Source: a virus | Taxonomy: Duplodnaviria > Heunggongvirae > Uroviricota > Caudoviricetes | Direction: 5' to 3' (one strand) | Length of the DNA: 24,643 nucleotides | IMG/VR virus record: IMGVR_UViG_2778261316_000001 | Location: 1-24,643 of that record | Notes under the pieces: generated by a model | Database searches by the model: none | Seen by the model: only the letters and a program-made list of their open reading frames with translations | What the model was told of the DNA's origin: nothing | Translations under genes and position numbers: made by a program | In this document: positions 1-22,012 of the stretch, in pieces | How the letters are laid out: every line of letters starts with the position of its first letter | How positions within the stretch are numbered: the stretch's first letter is position 1

Positions 1-111
1 TCCACCTGCAAAATAAGTGGGTGCTTAAGTTACAGGATCCTGGATTCGGGACCAGACGGTACTCAGACGACGCTTACACTTCAGGAGGCATAACAAAAGG
101 AGTACAACGAT

Positions 112-867
112 ATGTCAACTCAACCCTTAATGAAGCATGAAGTAGTTCTTCCGGTCATCGTTGACGGCTATCACTGGGCCTGTAATCAGGACCGTATGTG
201 GAACCTGAACGAGCTACATAGGACGCTTGGGCTTCCACCTGCTAAGGAGCCGGGTCAGTGGCGTAGCTCTCTAAAAGACAAGCTCGTTAAAGATGCAAAT
301 TTGCATGTTTTAGCAGGACGCTCCGGTGGCACACTGGCAACTGAGGAAGCGGCTATTGCCTATGCGATGTGGGTCTCTGACGATTTCTACCTAAAGGTCA
401 TCCGTGCTTTCATCGCTTTACGTAACGACAAAGTGTCAGAAGCTAAGGCGCTGGCGCAGGACTCCAAGGAACTTAAGGGTCTCAAGCCTATAGCCCGTAA
501 CTGGCTGGAAAAGCTGGATAACCCGAAGCAGGGCCACACCCTGACAGAGTGTCTTAAGAATCTCGACTTCAGGCTAGGTACAAAGCTGGTATCAGCCAAG
601 GCTCTTAATGCCGTATTGAAGTCAGGGCGTATAGCTAATCCCTTCTATAGTCGCAAGCTGGACGGTCGAGGACAGCCTGTATTTGACATCTCGTCAGGTG
701 GCTGGATGACCAGCTTCAATCCGAAGGGTCTGGAGAACGGCTATTACCGTCTTCAGGATAACCACTACAACGGTCAGGAGGGGCTTAAGGTCCTCACCAA
801 GGGTTACGAGTGGCTTAAGTCCAACAAGGTCGAGCTGGTTCGTCTGTGCGCTAAGGGAGGACTCTAA
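112..867 (+). CDS. KilA-N-like domain protein (phage antirepressor/regulator-like), 251 aa
   Basis: ORF preceded by AGGAGG...AAGGAG; N-terminal ~100 aa resemble KilA-N/APSES DNA-binding domain pattern (e.g. EEAAIAYAMWVSDDFYLKVIRAF). Domain call from memory, not searched. Confidence 0.45.
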   Translation: MSTQPLMKHEVVLPVIVDGYHWACNQDRMWNLNELHRTLGLPPAKEPGQWRSSLKDKLVKDANLHVLAGRSGGTLATEEAAIAYAMWVSDDFYLKVIRAFIALRNDKVSEAKALAQDSKELKGLKPIARNWLEKLDNPKQGHTLTECLKNLDFRLGTKLVSAKALNAVLKSGRIANPFYSRKLDGRGQPVFDISSGGWMTSFNPKGLENGYYRLQDNHYNGQEGLKVLTKGYEWLKSNKVELVRLCAKGGL

Positions 868-868
868 G

Positions 869-1036
869 ATGATCGACCCGCGCACACCTGAGGGTCGCAT
901 GACTCTCCGTTACCGTGGCTACCGGACTGAAGTCATCCTGAAGGAGCTTGGTCTAGACCCGGAAGATGAGACCCGCCAGCACCAATCACGAGATGAGCTA
1001 ATAGCCCAACTGGTCGCTATGAAACTGTCTGCCTAA
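869..1036 (+). CDS. Small hypothetical phage protein, 55 aa (MIDPRTPEGRMTLRYRGYRTEVILKELGLDPEDETRQHQSRDELIAQLVAMKLSA)
   Basis: ATG 1 nt after the stop of the upstream ORF, suggesting translational coupling; not in ORF track because shorter than 60 aa. Confidence 0.3.
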   Translation: MIDPRTPEGRMTLRYRGYRTEVILKELGLDPEDETRQHQSRDELIAQLVAMKLSA

Positions 1037-1132
1037 TTTTAAAACCTTTTGAGATGACCGATGCGGGGAGACCCGTAGGCGCTACTGCGTCTGCGATACC
1101 GATAGTCTCAACTCTCAAGAGGAGTAATTACT

Positions 1133-1642
1133 ATGTCTAGCAAAGCTAGTGCGTTATTCAACAACAATGACTGGAAACTCCATGTCACCGACATCAATCT
1201 CTACGAAAACACTGTGAGTCTGGACGGTCAGTCCTACCCACTGTCCTTCGCTATTAAGACCCTGATTCCGGGCTACCTGTCAGGACTGCCTGCCACCAGC
1301 CGCGAGTCCATGGAATTACTGGAAGCTCTGGCTGAAGCTGGCGTGACCATTGGAAACTTCTTCAGCAATGACCTGATGACCGCCTACCAACGTCGCCAGC
1401 AGAACAAGCGAGCCGAGGCTGAGCGTATCGCTAAAGAGCAGCGCATTCAGGCTGAGCGTATGCGTGAAGAGAACATGACCGATGCAGAGTGGCAGAAAGA
1501 GCTACAGCGCCGCAAACAGGTCAAAGCTGAGCGCCGGACCTATGGTGAGAACCTCCGCAGTGCTACCCATTCCGCTGGTCGCTCCCGTGCCGCTATTGTC
1601 GCTGACATTGAGTCAGGCGGTAACTGGATGGACAGCCTCTAA
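1133..1642 (+). CDS. Hypothetical phage protein with charged coiled-coil segment (scaffold-like), 169 aa
   Basis: RBS AAGAGGAG upstream; central AEAERIAKEQRIQAERMREE...QKELQRRKQVKAERR heptad-like charged region. Function inferred only from composition and position. Confidence 0.4.
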   Translation: MSSKASALFNNNDWKLHVTDINLYENTVSLDGQSYPLSFAIKTLIPGYLSGLPATSRESMELLEALAEAGVTIGNFFSNDLMTAYQRRQQNKRAEAERIAKEQRIQAERMREENMTDAEWQKELQRRKQVKAERRTYGENLRSATHSAGRSRAAIVADIESGGNWMDSL

Positions 1643-1716
1643 GACAGACACACAAGTGGTCCTGACCTGATGTCGGGACCCACAGTATCTAAAACTAATT
1701 TAGGAGATTGATTATT

Positions 1717-2706
1717 ATGACCATGATTAAAGATAGCTATCAGTTCGGCATTGAGCCAGTACGTATCACCGACACCGACAACATTCAGGTAAACGAAGGT
1801 CTTCCGACTAACGCCGACCCTCAGGTCTATGCCTTCCAGTTAGCTAAGCTGGTGAAGACCATGCTCAATTCTGTACTTAAAGACGCTCAGGATAACATTC
1901 CGTTCCCTGTAGAAGTCCTGCCAGCTCGCAACAGCTTACCGACGCCAATCATTGCTCACACTCTGGCTGACCGCTCTGTGGTCGTTCCTGTCCGTGGTGG
2001 TAAACGACCTGAAGTCGTGACCGCTCCGTCTGGTACTGAAATCACCGTTGAGCCGATTGAGCAAGCTATCCTCGTGTCCCACCAGACCAAGCTATGGGAC
2101 GCTAAGTCATCCACCGGATTCACTCAGGGCACACTTCAGCAGGACGCTATGAACATCTGTGAGAATGTGGTCCGTACCATCAACGCTCGCATGGTCGACG
2201 TTCTGGAGTCCTCCAAACTGTTGAAGACCGTAGAGCTTCCTGTCCTGACTGGTAGCCTGACCGCTAAGGCAGACGATATCATGGACGCTCTGTATGACAA
2301 CACCGAGCCATCTTTCGGTTCTGAGGTTTCTGACTATGGCATTATCGCCCATGAGTCACACATCAAGGCTCTCTCTCGTCTGGCTGCTAAGCAGGGCTTC
2401 TCTGGTGAAGACGCTATCGTGGATATGCTGGGTACCGACATCGCGTATTACAACGGTGAGGACAAAGGTGTGTTCATGTTGGCTAAACGCTTCACGGCCC
2501 TGAGCTTCGGCTGCTTCCGTCACGACGGTGAGAATATTACGGTCGTCCTTTCACGTGATGGCGACTCTCAGTCCCACGACTTGGAAATCCTCGGTAAAGT
2601 GTTCGTTGTCGCTGAAGCTGCTACGACCGTCAAGATGGGCACTGGCTCAGCTACTGCCGTCCTGCCTGTAGTCAAACGCCTGAAGTTCACCAAGACCGAA
2701 GCGTAA
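1717..2706 (+). CDS. Hypothetical phage structural protein, possible major capsid protein, about 329 aa
   Basis: TAGGAG 10 nt upstream of ATG at 1717 (track start 1708 is TTG); T/V/A-rich, low K/R composition and size typical of capsid proteins; follows the coiled-coil ORF. Product is a guess. Confidence 0.4.
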   Translation: MTMIKDSYQFGIEPVRITDTDNIQVNEGLPTNADPQVYAFQLAKLVKTMLNSVLKDAQDNIPFPVEVLPARNSLPTPIIAHTLADRSVVVPVRGGKRPEVVTAPSGTEITVEPIEQAILVSHQTKLWDAKSSTGFTQGTLQQDAMNICENVVRTINARMVDVLESSKLLKTVELPVLTGSLTAKADDIMDALYDNTEPSFGSEVSDYGIIAHESHIKALSRLAAKQGFSGEDAIVDMLGTDIAYYNGEDKGVFMLAKRFTALSFGCFRHDGENITVVLSRDGDSQSHDLEILGKVFVVAEAATTVKMGTGSATAVLPVVKRLKFTKTEA

Positions 2707-2711
2707 GACCA

Positions 2712-2951
2712 ATGGGTAAGAGCATTAGTAAAGGCTTCAGGTCCATCGCCAAGGGCCTGACAGGTGGTGCTGGGACTCAAGGTGGGGCTTCGGTCCCGCC
2801 TCCTGTAGCTCCTCCTGTAGCTCCTCCAGATGACGCTCAGCAAGCTGTAGTCGATACCCAAGGTCAGGAGACCGAGGGAGGTAAGACCATGAGCAGAGGT
2901 AAGTCTGGACTGAATATCAGCAGGACTTCAGGTGGTGGGCTATCACTGTGA
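2712..2951 (+). CDS. Small Gly/Pro-rich hypothetical protein, 79 aa (contains PPPVAPPVAPP)
   Basis: ORF starts 6 nt after the upstream stop, same strand as the block. Confidence 0.3.
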   Translation: MGKSISKGFRSIAKGLTGGAGTQGGASVPPPVAPPVAPPDDAQQAVVDTQGQETEGGKTMSRGKSGLNISRTSGGGLSL

Positions 2952-2961
2952 TTAACTAACT

Positions 2962-2987
2962 ATGGTCTGGACCAATGGTCTGGACCT
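2962..2987. repeat. Tandem direct repeat ATGGTCTGGACC x2 (1-nt spacer)
   Basis: Read directly: ctATGGTCTGGACCaATGGTCTGGACCtg; related copies (AAGTCCAGACC, GGTCCTGACC, AATGACACAAGTCTGG, AATGACACAAGGTCTTG) lie in 3280-3375. Confidence 0.5.
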
Positions 2988-3027
2988 GTTGTTAATGTAA
3001 TAATATAACATAACAGATAGGGGCTTT

Positions 3028-3183
3028 ATGTCTATGACTTCCGCAGACCTGAAGTCCCTCCTGACTCTGGTCTATAAACTCGTGTTCCTCTCTGTGGGTC
3101 TCTACATGGTCCTCTCTGGTCGACTCGGTGTGGATGTGTTCGACACTCTGTCTAAGGCTGTGGGTGGACTTCTAGGTCCTTAG
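3028..3183 (+). CDS. Small predicted membrane protein, 51 aa (MSMTSADLKSLLTLVYKLVFLSVGLYMVLSGRLGVDVFDTLSKAVGGLLGP)
   Basis: GGGG upstream of ATG; one hydrophobic helix; last ORF before the junction region. Confidence 0.3.
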   Translation: MSMTSADLKSLLTLVYKLVFLSVGLYMVLSGRLGVDVFDTLSKAVGGLLGP

Positions 3184-3376
3184 GTTTGGACTCACAGTGG
3201 GACCGATGGTTTCTGACAGAAAAATGTGAATGACCATCTAATACATTAAGCCAGCAGACTTCCCCCCATAGGCCCACCTCAAGTCCAGACCGAGGCCACC
3301 GGGGGTCCTGACCAGCCGTCTAGACATCCAGTCTAATGACACAAGTCTGGCACAAAGAATGACACAAGGTCTTGAC

Positions 3377-4834
3377 TCAATGCAGGACCTCAGGCCTACT
3401 AAGGGTCCGCTTCAAGTCCTTGTAGTTCCAGATGAACTTAATGGGCACATCCAGTTTATCTTTGCCGCGGACGCCGTCGCGGATTGCCGTCATTTGCGGA
3501 CCATGATCGATAGCATCTGTCCAGCTGAAGCAGGAGATTGACGTTTTGACCGGATTATCCAGCACCGGCAGGCGTTCTATGGTAATGGTATAGGTCGATT
3601 CACGCGCGCCACTATTTCCGCCGCTGATGCCGACATTGCCCGTCAAAATAGGTAACATAGCAATAGCGCGTGCAGTCAGTTCGCCGTTTGCCTGGCGTTG
3701 TGGCCCCCAGCCCTGGCAGATATAAGCGGGTTTTGCTGTGCCAATTTCACGCGCCAGTTTGATGATACGGTCCTCCGGGATACCGGTAATTTGCGAAGCC
3801 CACTGCGGCGTTTTCGCTGTTTTATCGTCACCTTCACCAAGAATATAGGCTTTATAGTGACCATTTTTGGGTGCATCTGCGGGTAAGGTTTTTTCGTCAT
3901 AGCCGACGCAGTATTTATCGAGAAAAGATTGATCAACGAGATTTTCGTTAATCAATACCCAGGCAATACCCGCAACCAGCGCGGCATCGGTGCCCGGGCG
4001 AATAGGGAGCCATTCGTCTTCACGACCGGCAGCCGTATCGGTATATCGCGGATCGATAACAATCATTTTGGCGTTCGATTTCTCGCGCGCTTTTTCAAGA
4101 AGATAAGTGATGCCACCACCGCTCATGCGGGTTTCTGCCGGGTTGTTACCAAACATCACGACCAGCTTGCTGTTTTCAATATCCGTGGTGCTGTTGCCAT
4201 CATTACTGCCGTAGGTGTAGGGCATGGCACAGGAAATTTGCGCAGTGCTGTAGGAGCCATACTGGTTGAGTGAACCGCCGTAGCAGTTCATCAGGCGTTT
4301 GACCGCCGAGGCTGATGGCGAAGAGCGGGTCATATTGCCGCCAACGATCCCCGAAGAGTACTGAATATATACAGCCTCATTGCCATATTGTTCGACGGTT
4401 TTCTTCAGGCTACTGGCGATAGTATCCAGGGCTTCATCCCAGCTAATCCGTTCGAATTTGCCTTCGCCGCGTTTGCCCACGCGTTTCATTGGGTAATTCA
4501 AGCGATCGGGATGATTAATACGCCGGCGGATGGAGCGACCGCGCAAACAGGCGCGTACCTGATGGTTGCCGTACTCATCGCTGCCGGTATTGTCAGTTTC
4601 CACCCAGGTCACTTCATTATCTTTAACATGTAGACGAAGTGCACAGCGGCTACCACAGTTGACGGAACAGGCACCCCAGACCACTTTTTCGCGGGCCTGT
4701 TGTACCGATGCTGCTGCATTGCGCAGGGTAAACGGCAAAGAAAAACCGCCTGCAGCCAGCGCCAGAGAACCTATCGCGGTAGATTTAACGAGTGTTCTGC
4801 GGCTGATGCCCACCATTCGTTCATTTTTGGACAT
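3377..4834 (-). pseudogene. ynfE: ynfE truncated: N-terminal ~471 codons of DMSO-reductase-family molybdoenzyme catalytic subunit, Tat signal present
   Basis: Begins MSKNERMVGISRRTLVKSTAIGSLALAAG (twin-arginine motif) with CxxCxxxC cluster; homology to YnfE/DmsA ends after ...VPIKFIWNY (about 3422); last 14 codons (KDLKRTLSRPEVLH) are read-through into foreign DNA. Full-length protein is about 800 aa. Confidence 0.8.
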
Positions 4835-14949: not shown

Positions 14950-15002
14950 GGGCGGCAGAGCAGTCACGGAGTAAAACTGATACCGCCAAACGTCACCAGA
15001 AA
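14950..15002 (-). ncRNA. dicF: DicF small RNA (53 nt) with intrinsic terminator
   Basis: Reverse complement reads TTTCTGGTGACGTTTGGCGGTATCAGTTTTACTCCGTGACTGCTCTGCCGCCC followed by TTTTT, identical to the recalled K-12 DicF sequence. Confidence 0.9.
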
Positions 15003-16761: not shown

Positions 16762-17266
16762 ACAGGCTCGTGAGGCTCTGGATGCCTGGATATGTCGACC
16801 AGGAATGACACAGGAGCAGGCGACGATATTAATCACTGAAGCATTCTGGGCTTTGAAAGAGCGCCCGAACATCGATGTTCAGCGTGTCACAGATGAAGGT
16901 GGCGCGGTTGATCAGCGAGCGCTTGGTGTTAATCGAGTGAAGATATTCGAACGCTGGAAGGCTATCGACACCAGGGATAAGCGTGAAAAGTTCACGGCGC
17001 TAGTGCCTGCGATTATGGAGGCTATCCGGATTAGTGATTTCAGGTTGTATCGTGAAATTACTGACGGAAAAAGCATCACGTGCATGATCGCCGGGTTAAA
17101 CAAAGAATATGGCGATGTGGTGGAGTCCGGACTGCTTTTTGCTGATCCTGCCGTAGTGGATCGTGAAACTGACGAACTTATAGAAAAAGCAATTGCTTTC
17201 AAGCTTGCGTATCGACAGCAATACCAACAAAAAGCTGGATGGAATTATGAGCCTTCTTTTTGCTGA
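16745..17266 (+). CDS. Hypothetical prophage protein, 173 aa, in the cII/YdaT position
   Basis: ORF overlapping the dicC end and the replication gene start; no motif recognised. Confidence 0.5.
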   Translation: MKITPEQAREALDAWICRPGMTQEQATILITEAFWALKERPNIDVQRVTDEGGAVDQRALGVNRVKIFERWKAIDTRDKREKFTALVPAIMEAIRISDFRLYREITDGKSITCMIAGLNKEYGDVVESGLLFADPAVVDRETDELIEKAIAFKLAYRQQYQQKAGWNYEPSFC

Positions 17267-18190
17267 ACGCCCACTGGTTATAAACACGCAGCTGGCAATG
17301 AAAATTGGCTTAAACGAAGCCATTGTTTTGCAACAACTGCACTACTGGTTGAGAGATACCAACTCCGGCATGGAATGTGATGGTGTTCGCTGGATTTATA
17401 ACACAACGGAACAATGGCTGGAACAGTTCCCATTCTGGTCAGAGTCAACGTTAAAGCGCGCGTTTGCAAGTCTGAAAACGCTGGGGCTTTTGCGTTGTGA
17501 AAAGCTCAATAAATCAAAGCGCGATATGACCAATTTCTACTTTTAGATGGTGGCAAATTGAGCGAATCCATCGGTTCAAAATGCGCCGCTCCATCAGGTC
17601 AAAATGACACGATGGAAGAGGTCAAAATGAAACGCTCCATTGGTTCAAAACGACCCAATGTCATCGGGTCAAAATGGCCTGATGATCTTACAGAGAATAC
17701 AACAGAGATTACTACAGAGAATAAAAACACTTTTCGTCCGGAAGCTTCGCAACCGGACCCGCAGACGACTGAACAGGATTCTTTAACCCGGAACTCCGAC
17801 GCGGTTGTGTTTAGTGCGAAAAAACGCCAGTGGGGTAGCAGGGAGGATTTGGCGTGTGCGCAGTGGATCTGGGGGCGGATCGTGGGTCTCTACGAACAGG
17901 CAGCCAGTGATGATGGCGAGATCATGCGACCAAAAGAGCCTAACTGGACTGCCTGGGCCAATGACGTGCGCACAATGCGGATGCTGGATGGCAGAAGCCA
18001 CAGACAAATTTGCGAAATGTTTGGTCGGGTTCAGCGAGATCCATTCTGGGTAAAAAACATCATGAGCCCGTCAAAGCTCCGCGAAAAATGGGACGAACTG
18101 GTCATCCGCCTGGGACGTTCACCTGTACAGCGTTGTGTTAATCATATTTCTGAACCGGATACAGAAATTCCGCCTGGTTTCAGAGGATAA
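17247..18190 (+). pseudogene. Phage replication initiator (O-like) split into two frames at a T-run, with origin iterons inside
   Basis: N-terminal ~100 aa (MSLLFAERPLVINTQLAMKIGLNEAIVLQQLHYWL...) in frame 0 ends at 17546; continuation in another frame from about 17513/17558 to 18190; frames meet at ctacTTTTagatgg. Confidence 0.55.
17562..17680. repeat. Five iterons (consensus TCCATYGGTTCAAAATG) at 23-24 bp spacing, followed by an A+T-rich stretch: candidate prophage replication origin
   Basis: CAAAATG/CAAAACG cores at 17577, 17600, 17623, 17646, 17670; downstream acagagaatacaacagagattactacagagaataaaaac. Confidence 0.65.
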
Positions 18191-18230: not shown

Positions 18231-18653
18231 GTGGCAAAAGTTTTTACACAAGAAGAGCGGGAAAAAATTAAATGGCAGGTGGTGGAACTCGTGCGCCAGA
18301 GCGGCCGTGAGACGTTACGGCAACTGGAAGCTAAAACAGGTGCGACTAGATATCTGATGAGCGTTCTTGCCAGAGAGCTGGTAGCCAGTGGCGATGTATA
18401 CAACTCCGGCTACGGGTTATTCCCCTCTGAACAGGCGCGTAAGGACTGGCAAAACGCCCGCAAAAAACTCTCGAGGGCAAAGGTGAAGAAACCTGCTGTG
18501 GTTGATCCGGACCTTATCTGGTCATCACCTGACGGAGAAATACGTCGCTACGACAGTCGCCTAAACATAATCTGTCGCGAGTGCCGGAAGAGCGAAGTTA
18601 TGCAGCGCATACTGGCTTTCTATCAGGGTAATTTTCAGGACGTGGCGCAGTGA
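18231..18653 (+). CDS. Hypothetical prophage protein, 140 aa (GTG start)
   Basis: ORF after the replication gene, overlapping the methyltransferase start (GTGA); basic, with a CxxC pair (CRECRK). Confidence 0.4.
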   Translation: MAKVFTQEEREKIKWQVVELVRQSGRETLRQLEAKTGATRYLMSVLARELVASGDVYNSGYGLFPSEQARKDWQNARKKLSRAKVKKPAVVDPDLIWSSPDGEIRRYDSRLNIICRECRKSEVMQRILAFYQGNFQDVAQ

Positions 18654-19139
18654 GTGCACCGGCAACCATTCTTGATATGTGCTGTGGCAGCCGCATGTTC
18701 TGGTTCGATAAGTCTGACAAACGGGCGATATTCAGCGATATCAGAAAAGAAGGATACACATTACGCAATGGGAGACGCTTGATTATCAGCCCTGACATTA
18801 TCGCAGATTTTCGTGCATTATCATTTGCAGACGCATCTTTTTCGATGGTTGTATTAGACCCTCCGCATCTTGAGCGTGTTGGTGATAACGCCTGGATGGG
18901 AAAGAAATATGGACGGCTGAATAAAGATGCCTGGCGTGATGATTTGCGACAGAGATTTAAAGAAGCTTTTCGGGTGTTGAGGCCGCACGGCGTTCTGATT
19001 TTTTAATGGAATGAAACGCAAATACCGGTAAGCCAGATTCTGGCACTGACAGATAGAAAGCCTGTTATCTGTCAACGAACAGGGAAAAAACGATAAAACC
19101 CACTGGATTATTTTTATGAAAGAGGCATCCAGTGAGTAG
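18650..19139 (+). pseudogene. Phage DNA methyltransferase (DPPH motif) disrupted by an in-frame TAA and a frameshift in an A-run
   Basis: ILDMCCGSR (motif I-like) and VVLDPPH (motif IV); in-frame TAA at 19004-19006 inside ...GVLIF*WNETQIPVSQ...; reading shifts frame in AAAAAA at 19085-19090 to continue ...NDKTHWIIFMKEASSE. Confidence 0.6.
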
Positions 19140-19616
19140 ATTCGTAAGGTTACAGATACGTATATCTGAATAATTAAATTCAGTTCTGTAAATAAAACTT
19201 AATCCTTAACCGGATGGATTTCTGCACCCTCAGAACATCAGGAGGCCGCCCGAAAGGGCGGTAGTGAAATGCGAAAGTTCAAAATTATTATTGAAACGGA
19301 AATAGCTGGTGGAGATTTTGAGGATGTATTCGAAGTGGACGATGACGCAACACCTGATGAAATTCATGACGGAGCATAAGAAATTTTCTTTAACTACTGC
19401 AATTACTCATACCACGAAATAAAAGACGATGAGGAAGAACAAAGTGGCTGATTTTTGTTCAGCTAAATATAACATCAGTTTTGAAGAGCGGGATGAACTA
19501 TTAATGGACTATGGTGAATTACGCGGTGGAAGTGCTGCTGATGTCGAATCCTAGCGTGATGACTATGAAGCGGGAAAAACTCCGGTCGAAGCATATTGTG
19601 ATGAGTGGGGCGATGA

Positions 19617-19871
19617 ATGAGCGAGATTAATTATCAGGAAGGGCATGAAACGGCGGGGCAAGCAAAACCAGTGGCATGGCGATATCGCTACGTGAAAAAA
19701 GCGTTACGGACTTTCAGGGGAAGTAGTGGTCTGGTGACTGGAAATATGTACCGAAAAAAGAGGATTGTAACGACAGGCCGAACTATCAAATTCAGGCCTT
19801 ATTCACTGCCTCACCAGTCCCGGTTACATCAGAAGAACTGGTTAAAGCTGTGCACTTTTATGAACAACTAA
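19617..19871 (+). CDS. Hypothetical protein, 84 aa, possibly frameshifted
   Basis: Track ORF; an alternative frame from about 19700 gives a more protein-like continuation (WKYVPKKEDCNDRPNYQIQALFTASPVPVTSEELVKAVHFYEQLKREN) without a start codon. Confidence 0.3.
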   Translation: MSEINYQEGHETAGQAKPVAWRYRYVKKALRTFRGSSGLVTGNMYRKKRIVTTGRTIKFRPYSLPHQSRLHQKNWLKLCTFMNN

Positions 19872-20157
19872 AACGCGAAAATCCACCAACATCCGGCAAC
19901 TAGATTAATGGATTAACTATGTCGGTTAAACGACCAGCCAACTGAAAAAGCGGAAACCTGATTACAGGTTGCCAGATAAGGCAATGAGCTACCTGGCGCG
20001 GAACGGGCTGATAAGTATGGGGAATGTTTTACGATGAACCTTTAGACTAAAGAGTTTGTAACGCTATGTAAGTGATTTTTTCTGGTTTAGATATTTATAT
20101 GTCCGGCCAAATTGAGGTGTGTTTAAATGTAATTGCACATTGATTGTAGGAGGAATA

Positions 20158-20337: not shown

Positions 20338-20643
20338 ATACAGCGAACTCCATTGGTTTAGTTGGATATTTACTGTGCTGGACAAAAACGGTTTGCGGGG
20401 AAATCTTAGTTAAGTAGAATGACTGCGGGTGCTTGAGGCTATCTGCCTCGGGCATGGACACCAACGGCAGATAGAGAAAAGCCCCAGTTAACATTACGCG
20501 TCCTGCAAGACGCTTAACATTAATCTGAGGCCAATTTCATGCTAGACACATGTAGGTTAGCCTCTTACGTGCCGAAAGGCACGGAGAAGCAGGCTATTGT
20601 TAACACCAAGCTGTAATGTCCCCTTTGAACCATTCTAAAATGT

Positions 20644-20671: not shown

Positions 20672-22012
20672 ATGATCAAAGAGACTGTTACGATGAGTCA
20701 TAAGGAACTCCACCGACTTCAGATTATTCAGGAGTCAATTAATCGACATATTACTCAGGAACAAGCTGCGGCACGCATTGGCATTTCTATTCGGCAGGTT
20801 AAACGTCTGGTGCAACGGTATAGAAATGAAGGGCCTTCTGGTCTGGTTTCCCACCGACGTGGAAAGCGTCCTAATAATTCCTTTTCTACTGAATTCAGAG
20901 CAACAGTAATTTCACTCCTCAAAGGCCGTTACGCTGATTTTGGACCTACGTTTGCGTGCGAAAAATTGCGCGAGATACACGGTTTATCTTTATCCGTTGA
21001 AACTCTCAGAAAGTGGATGATAGAAGAGGGGTTATGGCGTGAACGCCGTCGTAAAATTGCCCGTATATATCAACGCCGCATGCGACGACCATCTTACGGT
21101 GAACTGATCCAGATTGATGGCTCACCTCATGACTGGTTTGAAAATCGAGGCCCCAGATGTACACTGATCGTTTTCATTGATGATGCCACCAGTGCGTTGA
21201 TGGCGTTGCGTTTTGTGCCTGCTGAAACAACCCGGGCTTACATGGAAACCCTCCGGGGTTACCTTAATGATCATGGCGTACCGCTCGCTCTCTACTCTGA
21301 TAGACACAGTATATTCAGGGTAAATAACCCAGAGCGGGAAGGTGAGCTGACCCAGTTCACTCGTGCGATAAAGACACTGGGCATCGAGCCAATCCATGCC
21401 AACAGCCCGCAGGCAAAAGGGCGGGTAGAGCGCGCCAATCAGACACTACAGGACAGGCTGGTCAAAGAAATGCGGCTTCAGAATATCAGTGATATTGAAA
21501 CAGCAAATGCATGGTTGCCGACCTTTATTGAAGCCTATAACAACCGGTTCGCTACGTCGCCTCGTACTACTGATAATGCTCATCTTGATGTGCACCATTC
21601 TGAAGAGGAACTGGGTTATATCTTCAGCCTACAGGCGAAGCGCGTTCTGTCTAAAAATCTCACTTTCCAGTACAAAAGCAGTGCGTTTCAGGTACGCAGT
21701 GAGAGCCGGGGATATCGACTTAGGCATTCGGTTGTTACTGTATGCGAGAACTTTGACGGTGAAATTAACGTTCTGTATGACGGGAAAGCGCTGGGCTGGG
21801 AAAAGTATGTTGATGGCCCGGAGCCTATACCACTGGATGATGAAAAGAGTGTCCATGAACGAGTGGATAATGCCCGTATTGATTTACGCTCAAAATACTA
21901 TGTTAAACCTAAAGCTGACCATCCCTGGCTTACGCGCCGAACGCAAAGTCATCAGCAAGTTAAGCCCCCGAAGTTACCTAAAAAGAAGCCTGATCCCGAT
22001 AAAAAAGATTGA
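20672..22012 (+). CDS. DDE transposase (HTH N-terminus plus rve integrase-core domain), 446 aa; IS481/ISNCY-like
   Basis: N-terminal HTH (ITQEQAAARIGISIRQVKRLVQRY), catalytic core with D...D...E pattern (IQIDGSPHDWF..., LYSDRHSIF, ...RVERANQTLQ), basic C-tail. Family assignment from memory. Confidence 0.8.
   Translation: MIKETVTMSHKELHRLQIIQESINRHITQEQAAARIGISIRQVKRLVQRYRNEGPSGLVSHRRGKRPNNSFSTEFRATVISLLKGRYADFGPTFACEKLREIHGLSLSVETLRKWMIEEGLWRERRRKIARIYQRRMRRPSYGELIQIDGSPHDWFENRGPRCTLIVFIDDATSALMALRFVPAETTRAYMETLRGYLNDHGVPLALYSDRHSIFRVNNPEREGELTQFTRAIKTLGIEPIHANSPQAKGRVERANQTLQDRLVKEMRLQNISDIETANAWLPTFIEAYNNRFATSPRTTDNAHLDVHHSEEELGYIFSLQAKRVLSKNLTFQYKSSAFQVRSESRGYRLRHSVVTVCENFDGEINVLYDGKALGWEKYVDGPEPIPLDDEKSVHERVDNARIDLRSKYYVKPKADHPWLTRRTQSHQQVKPPKLPKKKPDPDKKD

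Follow-up and report, generated by a model that had tools for sequence, protein, structure and literature searches.

A methyltransferase remnant in the early-right operon of Qin

The window analysed here (the whole stretch of 24,643 nt) carries at positions 18650-19139 (plus strand) what is very probably a fixed pseudogene, within the Qin prophage, of a small (~160 aa) phage class I SAM-dependent methyltransferase. Two lesions interrupt the ~162-codon ancestral gene, a nonsense codon and, 26 codons further downstream, a one-base insertion at codons 145-147. The 5' remnant ORF (18650-19006, plus strand) opens with a GTG start and runs for 118 codons until a premature TAA (19004-19006) closes it as ...GVLIF*WNET.... 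It encodes, in this order, a motif I-like SAM-binding segment (ILDMCCGS, residues 7-14, 18668-18691, plus strand), whose D9, C11, and C12 residues are invariant in the family, and the motif IV tetrapeptide DPPH (residues 70-73, 18857-18868, plus strand), invariant in 107 homologs. Beyond the stop, the frame-0 stretch WNETQIPVSQILALTDRKPVICQRTG (19007-19084, plus strand) is colinear with intact homologs. Frame 0 read past the TAA gives WNETQIPVSQILALTDRKPVICQRTGKKR, which ends as ...QRTGKKR at a second stop, the TAA at 19094-19096, because of the one-base insertion in GGGAAAAAA (19082-19090, plus strand; GGG at 19082-19084 and A6 at 19085-19090). The +1 frame, entered within this same tract, yields the C-terminal remnant NDKTHWIIFMKEASSE (19089-19139, plus strand, including the TAG at 19137-19139), which matches the conserved C-terminus of intact homologs. 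In the repaired 162-aa protein, the segments past the stop and past the frameshift can each be aligned with regions of the homologs that are highly conserved. A first-pass annotation had placed the ORF start at 18650, the TAA at 19004, the A6 run at 19085-19090, and the end at 19139, all of which proved exact on re-reading, and the DPPH motif that it had claimed is the one found at residues 70-73.

Window positions 78-24643 are 100% identical to E. coli NZ_CM194533.1, bar an ISSen4 insertion in the latter, and the locus corresponds to the early-right (replication) operon of the lambdoid prophage Qin, integrated beside rspAB. The Qin gene order comprises the integrase, excisionase, exonuclease, ydfD, dicB, the DicF RNA, and ydfC/B/A, followed by the repressor, dicC (cro-like), a YdaT-like gene, an O-like replication gene, the DUF977 gene, and the methyltransferase remnant, and then by more pseudogenes, an ISEsa1 fragment, ydfW, flxA, relBE, hokD, and rem. 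An Rfam match to DicF RNA between ydfC and dicB (14950-15001, minus strand, 76.7 bits) confirms the Qin identity. Immediately upstream of the remnant, the TGA stop (18651-18653) of the DUF977-family gene (18231-18653, plus strand) overlaps the GTG start codon (GTGA), which makes translational coupling of the two genes likely.

The neighborhood of the remnant shows other signs of alteration. The O-like replication gene (17193-18190), an intact 966-nt ORF in E. coli CFSAN064036 and PhiR42_1, has in the window a 22-bp deletion relative to both (at ~17539/17540), which splits it into 17247-17546 and 17558-18190; given this strain-level deletion, the Qin copy of the window is probably unable to replicate. 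A 36-aa DUF7167 ORF located 3' of the pseudogene (19269-19379) is possibly a remnant too, since the annotation of the corresponding locus in E. coli W and NCTC9082 is that of a DUF7167 pseudogene which is longer and contains an internal stop. For regions 19617-20037 and 20693-21742, the PGAP annotation of the identical RefSeq record gives a 'hypothetical protein; frameshifted; internal stop' and a partial ISEsa1 transposase (IS1202-like), which indicates a general decay of that part of the prophage, and a sok-type antitoxin RNA (20427-20598, plus strand; Rfam, 104 bits) beside the ISEsa1 fragment implies a hok/sok-like toxin-antitoxin locus. At the other end of the window, positions 1-4834 contain KilA-N and DUF6971 genes and a truncated gene for the A subunit of a DMSO/selenate reductase (ynfE-like, 3377-4834, minus strand); ynfE is cut in two in the matching genome (L006 7824-17982) by an ~8 kb integrase-bearing island that lies within it.

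A nonsense substitution and a one-base insertion

DNA alignment to the intact genes of Stx2c_EH0430 and ST846-OXA48phi9.2, complemented by translations of the intact O121 and O111 prophage copies of E. coli, identifies the first lesion (19004-19006, plus strand) as a substitution and not an indel: one A-to-T change, at 19004, turned the AAA codon of Lys119 into TAA in the Qin lineage. Lys119 belongs to an F-K-W triplet (residues 118-120) and is invariant both among 34 close homologs and throughout an alignment of 107 sequences that spans enterobacterial and Gram-positive clades. The remnant keeps LDMCCGS and DPPHL, and in the triplet TAA takes the place of the K codon. The alignment to intact homologs proposed in the first-pass annotation as a check reveals that none of them ends at the TAA; all continue with F-K-W and then ~44 more conserved residues. 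The reading of the in-frame TAA as a lesion is well founded, as the codon is AAA in intact homologs.

The second lesion had been described as a poly-A frameshift. The frameshift at this tract is real, but the inserted base is most simply a G. At this site GGAAAAAAC is the reading of the nearest intact E. coli alleles, and over the tract itself intact E. coli alleles have GGAAAAAA; the 27 intact NDK-type alleles retrieved from IMG/VR, a group to which the window allele's closest intact relatives belong, all read ACA GGA AAA AAC GAT (GG + A6), as opposed to GGG + A6 in the window. The Klebsiella phage gene has GGG AAG AAC at the same site, which would hint at an extra A. Nevertheless, because the closest intact alleles are GG + A6, the addition of a G 5' of the ancestral A6 is a one-step event, so that the insertion that shifted the frame in the Qin lineage would more parsimoniously be a change from GG to GGG rather than an additional A in the run. 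The tract seems mildly prone to indels, since one IMG/VR member of the pseudogene lineage (L101) has gone a step further to GGGG + A6 and one protein cluster (P0018) translates as if one A had been lost from the run (apparently GG + A5).

These rare variations in tract length, from the GG + A6 of intact genes to the other three states, could be taken to favor the restoration of the full product by recoding (read-through of the stop together with +1 frameshifting or transcriptional slippage on G3A6), or the operation of a phase-variable switch. However, the tract is nearly fixed: all 43 TAA alleles in IMG/VR are frameshifted, 42 of them with GGG + A6 and only L101 with G4A6, and every sampled complete genome has G3A6. 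Runs of three and six bases are also much shorter than known slippage and phase-variation tracts. A programmed-frameshift gene is likewise at odds with the homologs, which are single plain ORFs with neither frameshift nor stop, and with the position of the TAA upstream of the shift. Since this in-frame stop precedes the tract by 26 codons and is not bypassed, frame correction or switching alone cannot rescue the protein. Plain homologous ORFs, a short and fixed tract, and an upstream TAA lead us to exclude recoding and phase variation (including a phasevarion), for which we see hardly any chance at all. Two inactivating mutations remain the preferred reading.

Both lesions are fixed in a widespread lineage

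The lesions lie in or beside short homopolymers (T6 at 18999-19004 and G3A6 at 19082-19090), and homopolymer indels are a frequent type of sequencing error, which might suggest that both are sequencing or assembly errors and that the gene is intact in the organism. Against this, the first lesion is a substitution, and both recur in identical form in genomes obtained by many laboratories on many platforms. A 60-mer centered on the TAA has an exact match in 473 of 5426 complete E. coli genomes, always chromosomal and in a single copy per genome. For the AAA-repaired 60-mer no full-length exact match was found in the same 5426 genomes, the best full-length match being the TAA allele itself (98.3%), and the frame-repaired 60-mer had no full-length exact match among them either; the repaired variant is absent from the lineage in these genomes. 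The 490-nt allele is held at ≥95% identity by 480 complete E. coli genomes, and the 31 rows at ≥95% in a 60-row spread sample all span exactly 490 nt. Alleles of 80-90% identity from other prophages occur in ~417 genomes, and most of the full-length rows sampled among them measure 489 nt, one base shorter. In IMG/VR, each of the 60 AAA alleles is separated from the window allele by 50 or more substitutions across the ~494-nt gene region.

The distribution extends beyond these collections. Of the GTDB species representatives, a Shigella flexneri chromosome alone gave a match, and it has both lesions; these are also present in E. coli W, in NCTC9082, and in the 48.7-kb prophage PhiR42_1 of ECOR13, which is Qin-like, full-length, and equipped with head and tail genes of the lambda type. 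The population data exclude sequencing error, whose probability we consider negligible. The consensus-error alternative, which the first-pass annotation had named as a possible refutation, is not borne out in the 473 complete genomes, Shigella flexneri, or PhiR42_1, and its proposal of genuine pseudogenisation by two independent lesions is sustained by their identical presence in hundreds of independent complete assemblies and in 43 of the 43 IMG/VR copies of the lineage.

We found no allele carrying a single lesion among the 5426 complete E. coli genomes, 102 IMG/VR loci, and the GTDB representatives. One protein (P0023) has GAA at codon 119 and keeps the frameshift; since it shares two derived residues, S76 and S99, with the E. 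coli W sub-lineage, a secondary TAA-to-GAA change is the simplest explanation. Both lesions would predate the common ancestor of all sampled copies and would have been passed on with the prophage. One IMG/VR copy (L035) keeps both lesions and diverges at the 5' end of the gene, where the first ~35 nt show 21 differences; this divergence suggests a recombination junction at the boundary between the DUF977 and methyltransferase genes. The two lesions can be used as a lineage marker of the Qin family, since both are fixed in a full-length Qin-like prophage, in a Shigella flexneri genome, and in ~9% of complete E. coli genomes.

Consequences for the protein and age of the inactivation

Translation of the remnant would now give at most a 118-residue stump. 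To place the truncation in the fold, we used an AF2 model of an intact homolog (P0001) built with 107 sequences (pLDDT 86.5); a first run with 34 close homologs had reached a pLDDT of only 53.5 and was discarded, and it was the addition of a second, Gram-positive clade that raised this value. In the model, residue 118 lies inside the strand 110-121, after which come a helix (127-131) and two further strands (138-141 and 150-156). About half of the positions in the lost 44-residue segment are invariant among the 34 close homologs (W120, E122, T123, Q124, L133, T134, P138, Q142-K146, D148, K149, H151, W152, and F155). Judging from the sequence and the model, the stump is not expected to be an active enzyme.

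Polymorphism within the pseudogene lineage is scarce. The few variable sites amount to 7 non-synonymous and 7 synonymous changes (the recombinant 5' end of L035 excluded), a ratio that fits cleanly neither pure neutrality nor the constraint seen in the family. That this ratio is lower than naive neutrality would predict (with p = 0.786, P = 0.017, rising to 0.09-0.18 under transition-biased expectations) is one of several observations compatible with the idea that the 118-aa N-terminal product is a genuine short protein with some function, for instance in SAM binding, in regulation, or as a dominant-negative form. The others are the coupling of its start codon to the upstream gene, its retention of motif I and DPPH, and the fact that PGAP calls it as a CDS in most carriers (WP_001310834.1). 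Yet the ratio is alike in the stump (5:4) and in the untranslated 3' part (2:3), the invariant R76 is replaced in one stump sub-lineage, and among the thousands of family members no intact one ends at residue 118. The cut, moreover, would sever a core beta strand and deprive the Rossmann fold of its last helix and of two strands, along with many invariant positions. The structural cut and the lack of N:S difference between the stump and the 3' remnant make a functional stump unlikely, to the point that we give it only a slim chance, although a somewhat better one than sequencing error or recoding; a dead fragment of a formerly complete enzyme is by far the better account.

The repaired protein deviates at 5 of 72 family-invariant positions (C39R, D40N, P58S, F69L, and G102R), to which the E. 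coli W sub-lineage adds R76S, whereas intact members deviate at 0-2 of the 72 in a leave-one-out test. The dN/dS values (Nei-Gojobori) between the repaired and intact alleles (0.14-0.20) fall within the range of those between intact alleles (0.09-0.37), which indicates that most of the divergence of the window allele accrued under constraint. An ancient pseudogene with long neutral decay was also considered and dropped, as dN/dS is not elevated. On these sequence comparisons, the inactivation appears to be recent in comparison with the allele's split from those of other prophages and older than its spread across E. coli and Shigella.

Family identity and probable ancestral function

The repaired 162-aa protein matches the phrog_954 profile over practically its whole length with E = 9.2e-82 (residues 5-161, profile positions 52-205 of 229), a level that chance would not produce. 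PHROG 954 is labeled 'DNA methyltransferase' and its members are named 'class I SAM-dependent methyltransferase' by NCBI. Relatives were detected by tblastn in 244 phage records (coverage ≥94%), and protein databases contain ~7000 of them at E ≤ 1e-20, typically of 155-165 aa. The family spans phages of Proteobacteria, Firmicutes, Actinobacteria, Bacteroidota, and Verrucomicrobia, with 45-65% identity between the proteins of E. coli prophages and those of phages infecting Streptococcus, Listeria, Staphylococcus, Gordonia, Bacteroides, Porphyromonas, Akkermansia, and Vibrio. Members have an uninterrupted ORF of ~155-165 codons, which the Qin copy lacks, with its stop at codon 119 and its insertion at codons 145-147; it has to be regarded for this reason as a PHROG 954 pseudogene and not as a functional member. 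By its sequence, it appears to be a member of the family by descent, but a broken one. Some longer homologs (248-279 aa) were looked at for clues to function, but they are fusions with downstream small phage ORFs and proved uninformative.

Assignment to the class I (Rossmann-fold) SAM-dependent methyltransferases is supported by a seven-stranded alpha/beta fold similar to those of solved members of the class. The Pfam model Methyltransf_11 matches with 21.3 bits, barely over its cut-off of 21.2, Methyltransf_25 is sub-threshold, and N6_N4_Mtase (PF01555) scores 16.6 bits, below its gathering threshold of 26.7. We discarded beta-class membership, implied by PF01555, on account of this sub-threshold score and of motif order, which should be IV before I and is I before IV in the remnant. 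NCBIfam has no model specific to the PHROG 954 family, and sequence searches against the PDB, with the single sequence and with a profile, gave no significant match (the best being 2zie, E = 0.12, residues 57-119). The matches of the fold search are generic class I methyltransferases, with RNA N2-guanine enzymes found as readily as M.TaqI. The resemblance to M.TaqI (N6-adenine, DNA), Trm11/TrmN (N2-guanine and N6-adenine, tRNA), and RsmC (N2-guanine, rRNA) is at the fold level only (TM 0.47-0.59, 12-19% identity), generic small-molecule methyltransferases equal or beat these enzymes in fold search score, and, in contrast with them, the PHROG 954 enzyme has no target-recognition domain. Our literature searches (on the DPPH motif, the Qin methyltransferase pseudogene, the WP accessions, and PhiR42_1) retrieved no characterized member of PHROG 954.

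The ancestor of the Qin copy would have been a single-domain Rossmann-fold enzyme with an N-terminal LDMCCGS SAM-binding motif and a DPPH catalytic motif. Motifs of the (D/N)PP(Y/F/H) type serve the methylation of exocyclic amino groups of nucleobases, and we infer the label of N6A/N4C DNA methyltransferase from the existing annotation and from this motif. The annotation labels, the invariant DPPH, and the location in a phage replication module make it reasonably probable that the ancestral substrate was DNA. The role of the enzyme was most likely the modification of phage DNA at an exocyclic amino group early in the lytic cycle, its expression presumably taking place early after induction or infection.

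Intact and broken relatives

Intact PHROG 954 relatives are encoded in E. coli O121 and O111 prophages (WP_001275735.1 and WP_000145667.1), in the Stx2c phage Stx2c_EH0430, and in Klebsiella phage ST846-OXA48phi9.2 (QBP07693.1). The window copy, once repaired, is colinear with them over the full length with 85-91% amino-acid identity, and it shares with them the LDMCCGS and DPPH motifs and a location downstream of replication and DUF977 genes. It differs from them by the nonsense codon at K119, the +1 insertion, and the five substitutions at otherwise invariant positions. Copies of the same family in lambdoid prophages of E. coli O157:H7 (for example strains EC4115 and ECP19-2498; L010 301-774 and L011 274-747) are pseudogenes as well, annotated by PGAP as 'SAM-dependent methyltransferase; internal stop'. 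Unlike the Qin copy, they have a stop at W95 and no frameshift, and they belong to a separate allele lineage with ~88% nucleotide identity. The P0018 lineage, with its apparent -1 deletion in the A run, may represent a third inactivation. Loss of the methyltransferase in resident prophages is thus recurrent, with independent inactivation confirmed in at least two E. coli prophage lineages (Qin and O157:H7) and perhaps also in P0018.

It is tempting to go beyond this and propose that the loss was selected and not merely tolerated, and that the Qin stump could persist as a functional fragment, but we regard this combination as very improbable. If true, ~9% of E. coli strains would bear a repurposed half-methyltransferase, and constitutive methylation by a prophage enzyme would be costly to the host.

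Annotation and significance of the Qin remnant

The pseudogene is already on record in RefSeq, where PGAP independently labels 18695-19139 as 'SAM-dependent methyltransferase; frameshifted; internal stop'. By contrast, ~380 RefSeq genomes (a figure extrapolated from a 60-row sample, with three records checked) treat the 118-aa stump as an ordinary protein, under the name 'class I SAM-dependent methyltransferase' (WP_001310834.1 and WP_182116904.1; L007 301-657, L008 301-657, and L002 3451-3807). RefSeq is thus inconsistent on one identical allele, a pseudogene in some of its genomes and an ordinary protein in several hundred others, which may mislead methylome and pan-genome work.

The Qin methyltransferase remnant is an ordinary, widespread, and previously annotated pseudogene in a decaying lambdoid prophage. 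It illustrates cleanly how a gene decays in a domesticated prophage, and its importance is chiefly practical; its parent family PHROG 954, widespread and highly conserved, is a more interesting target than the dead Qin copy.
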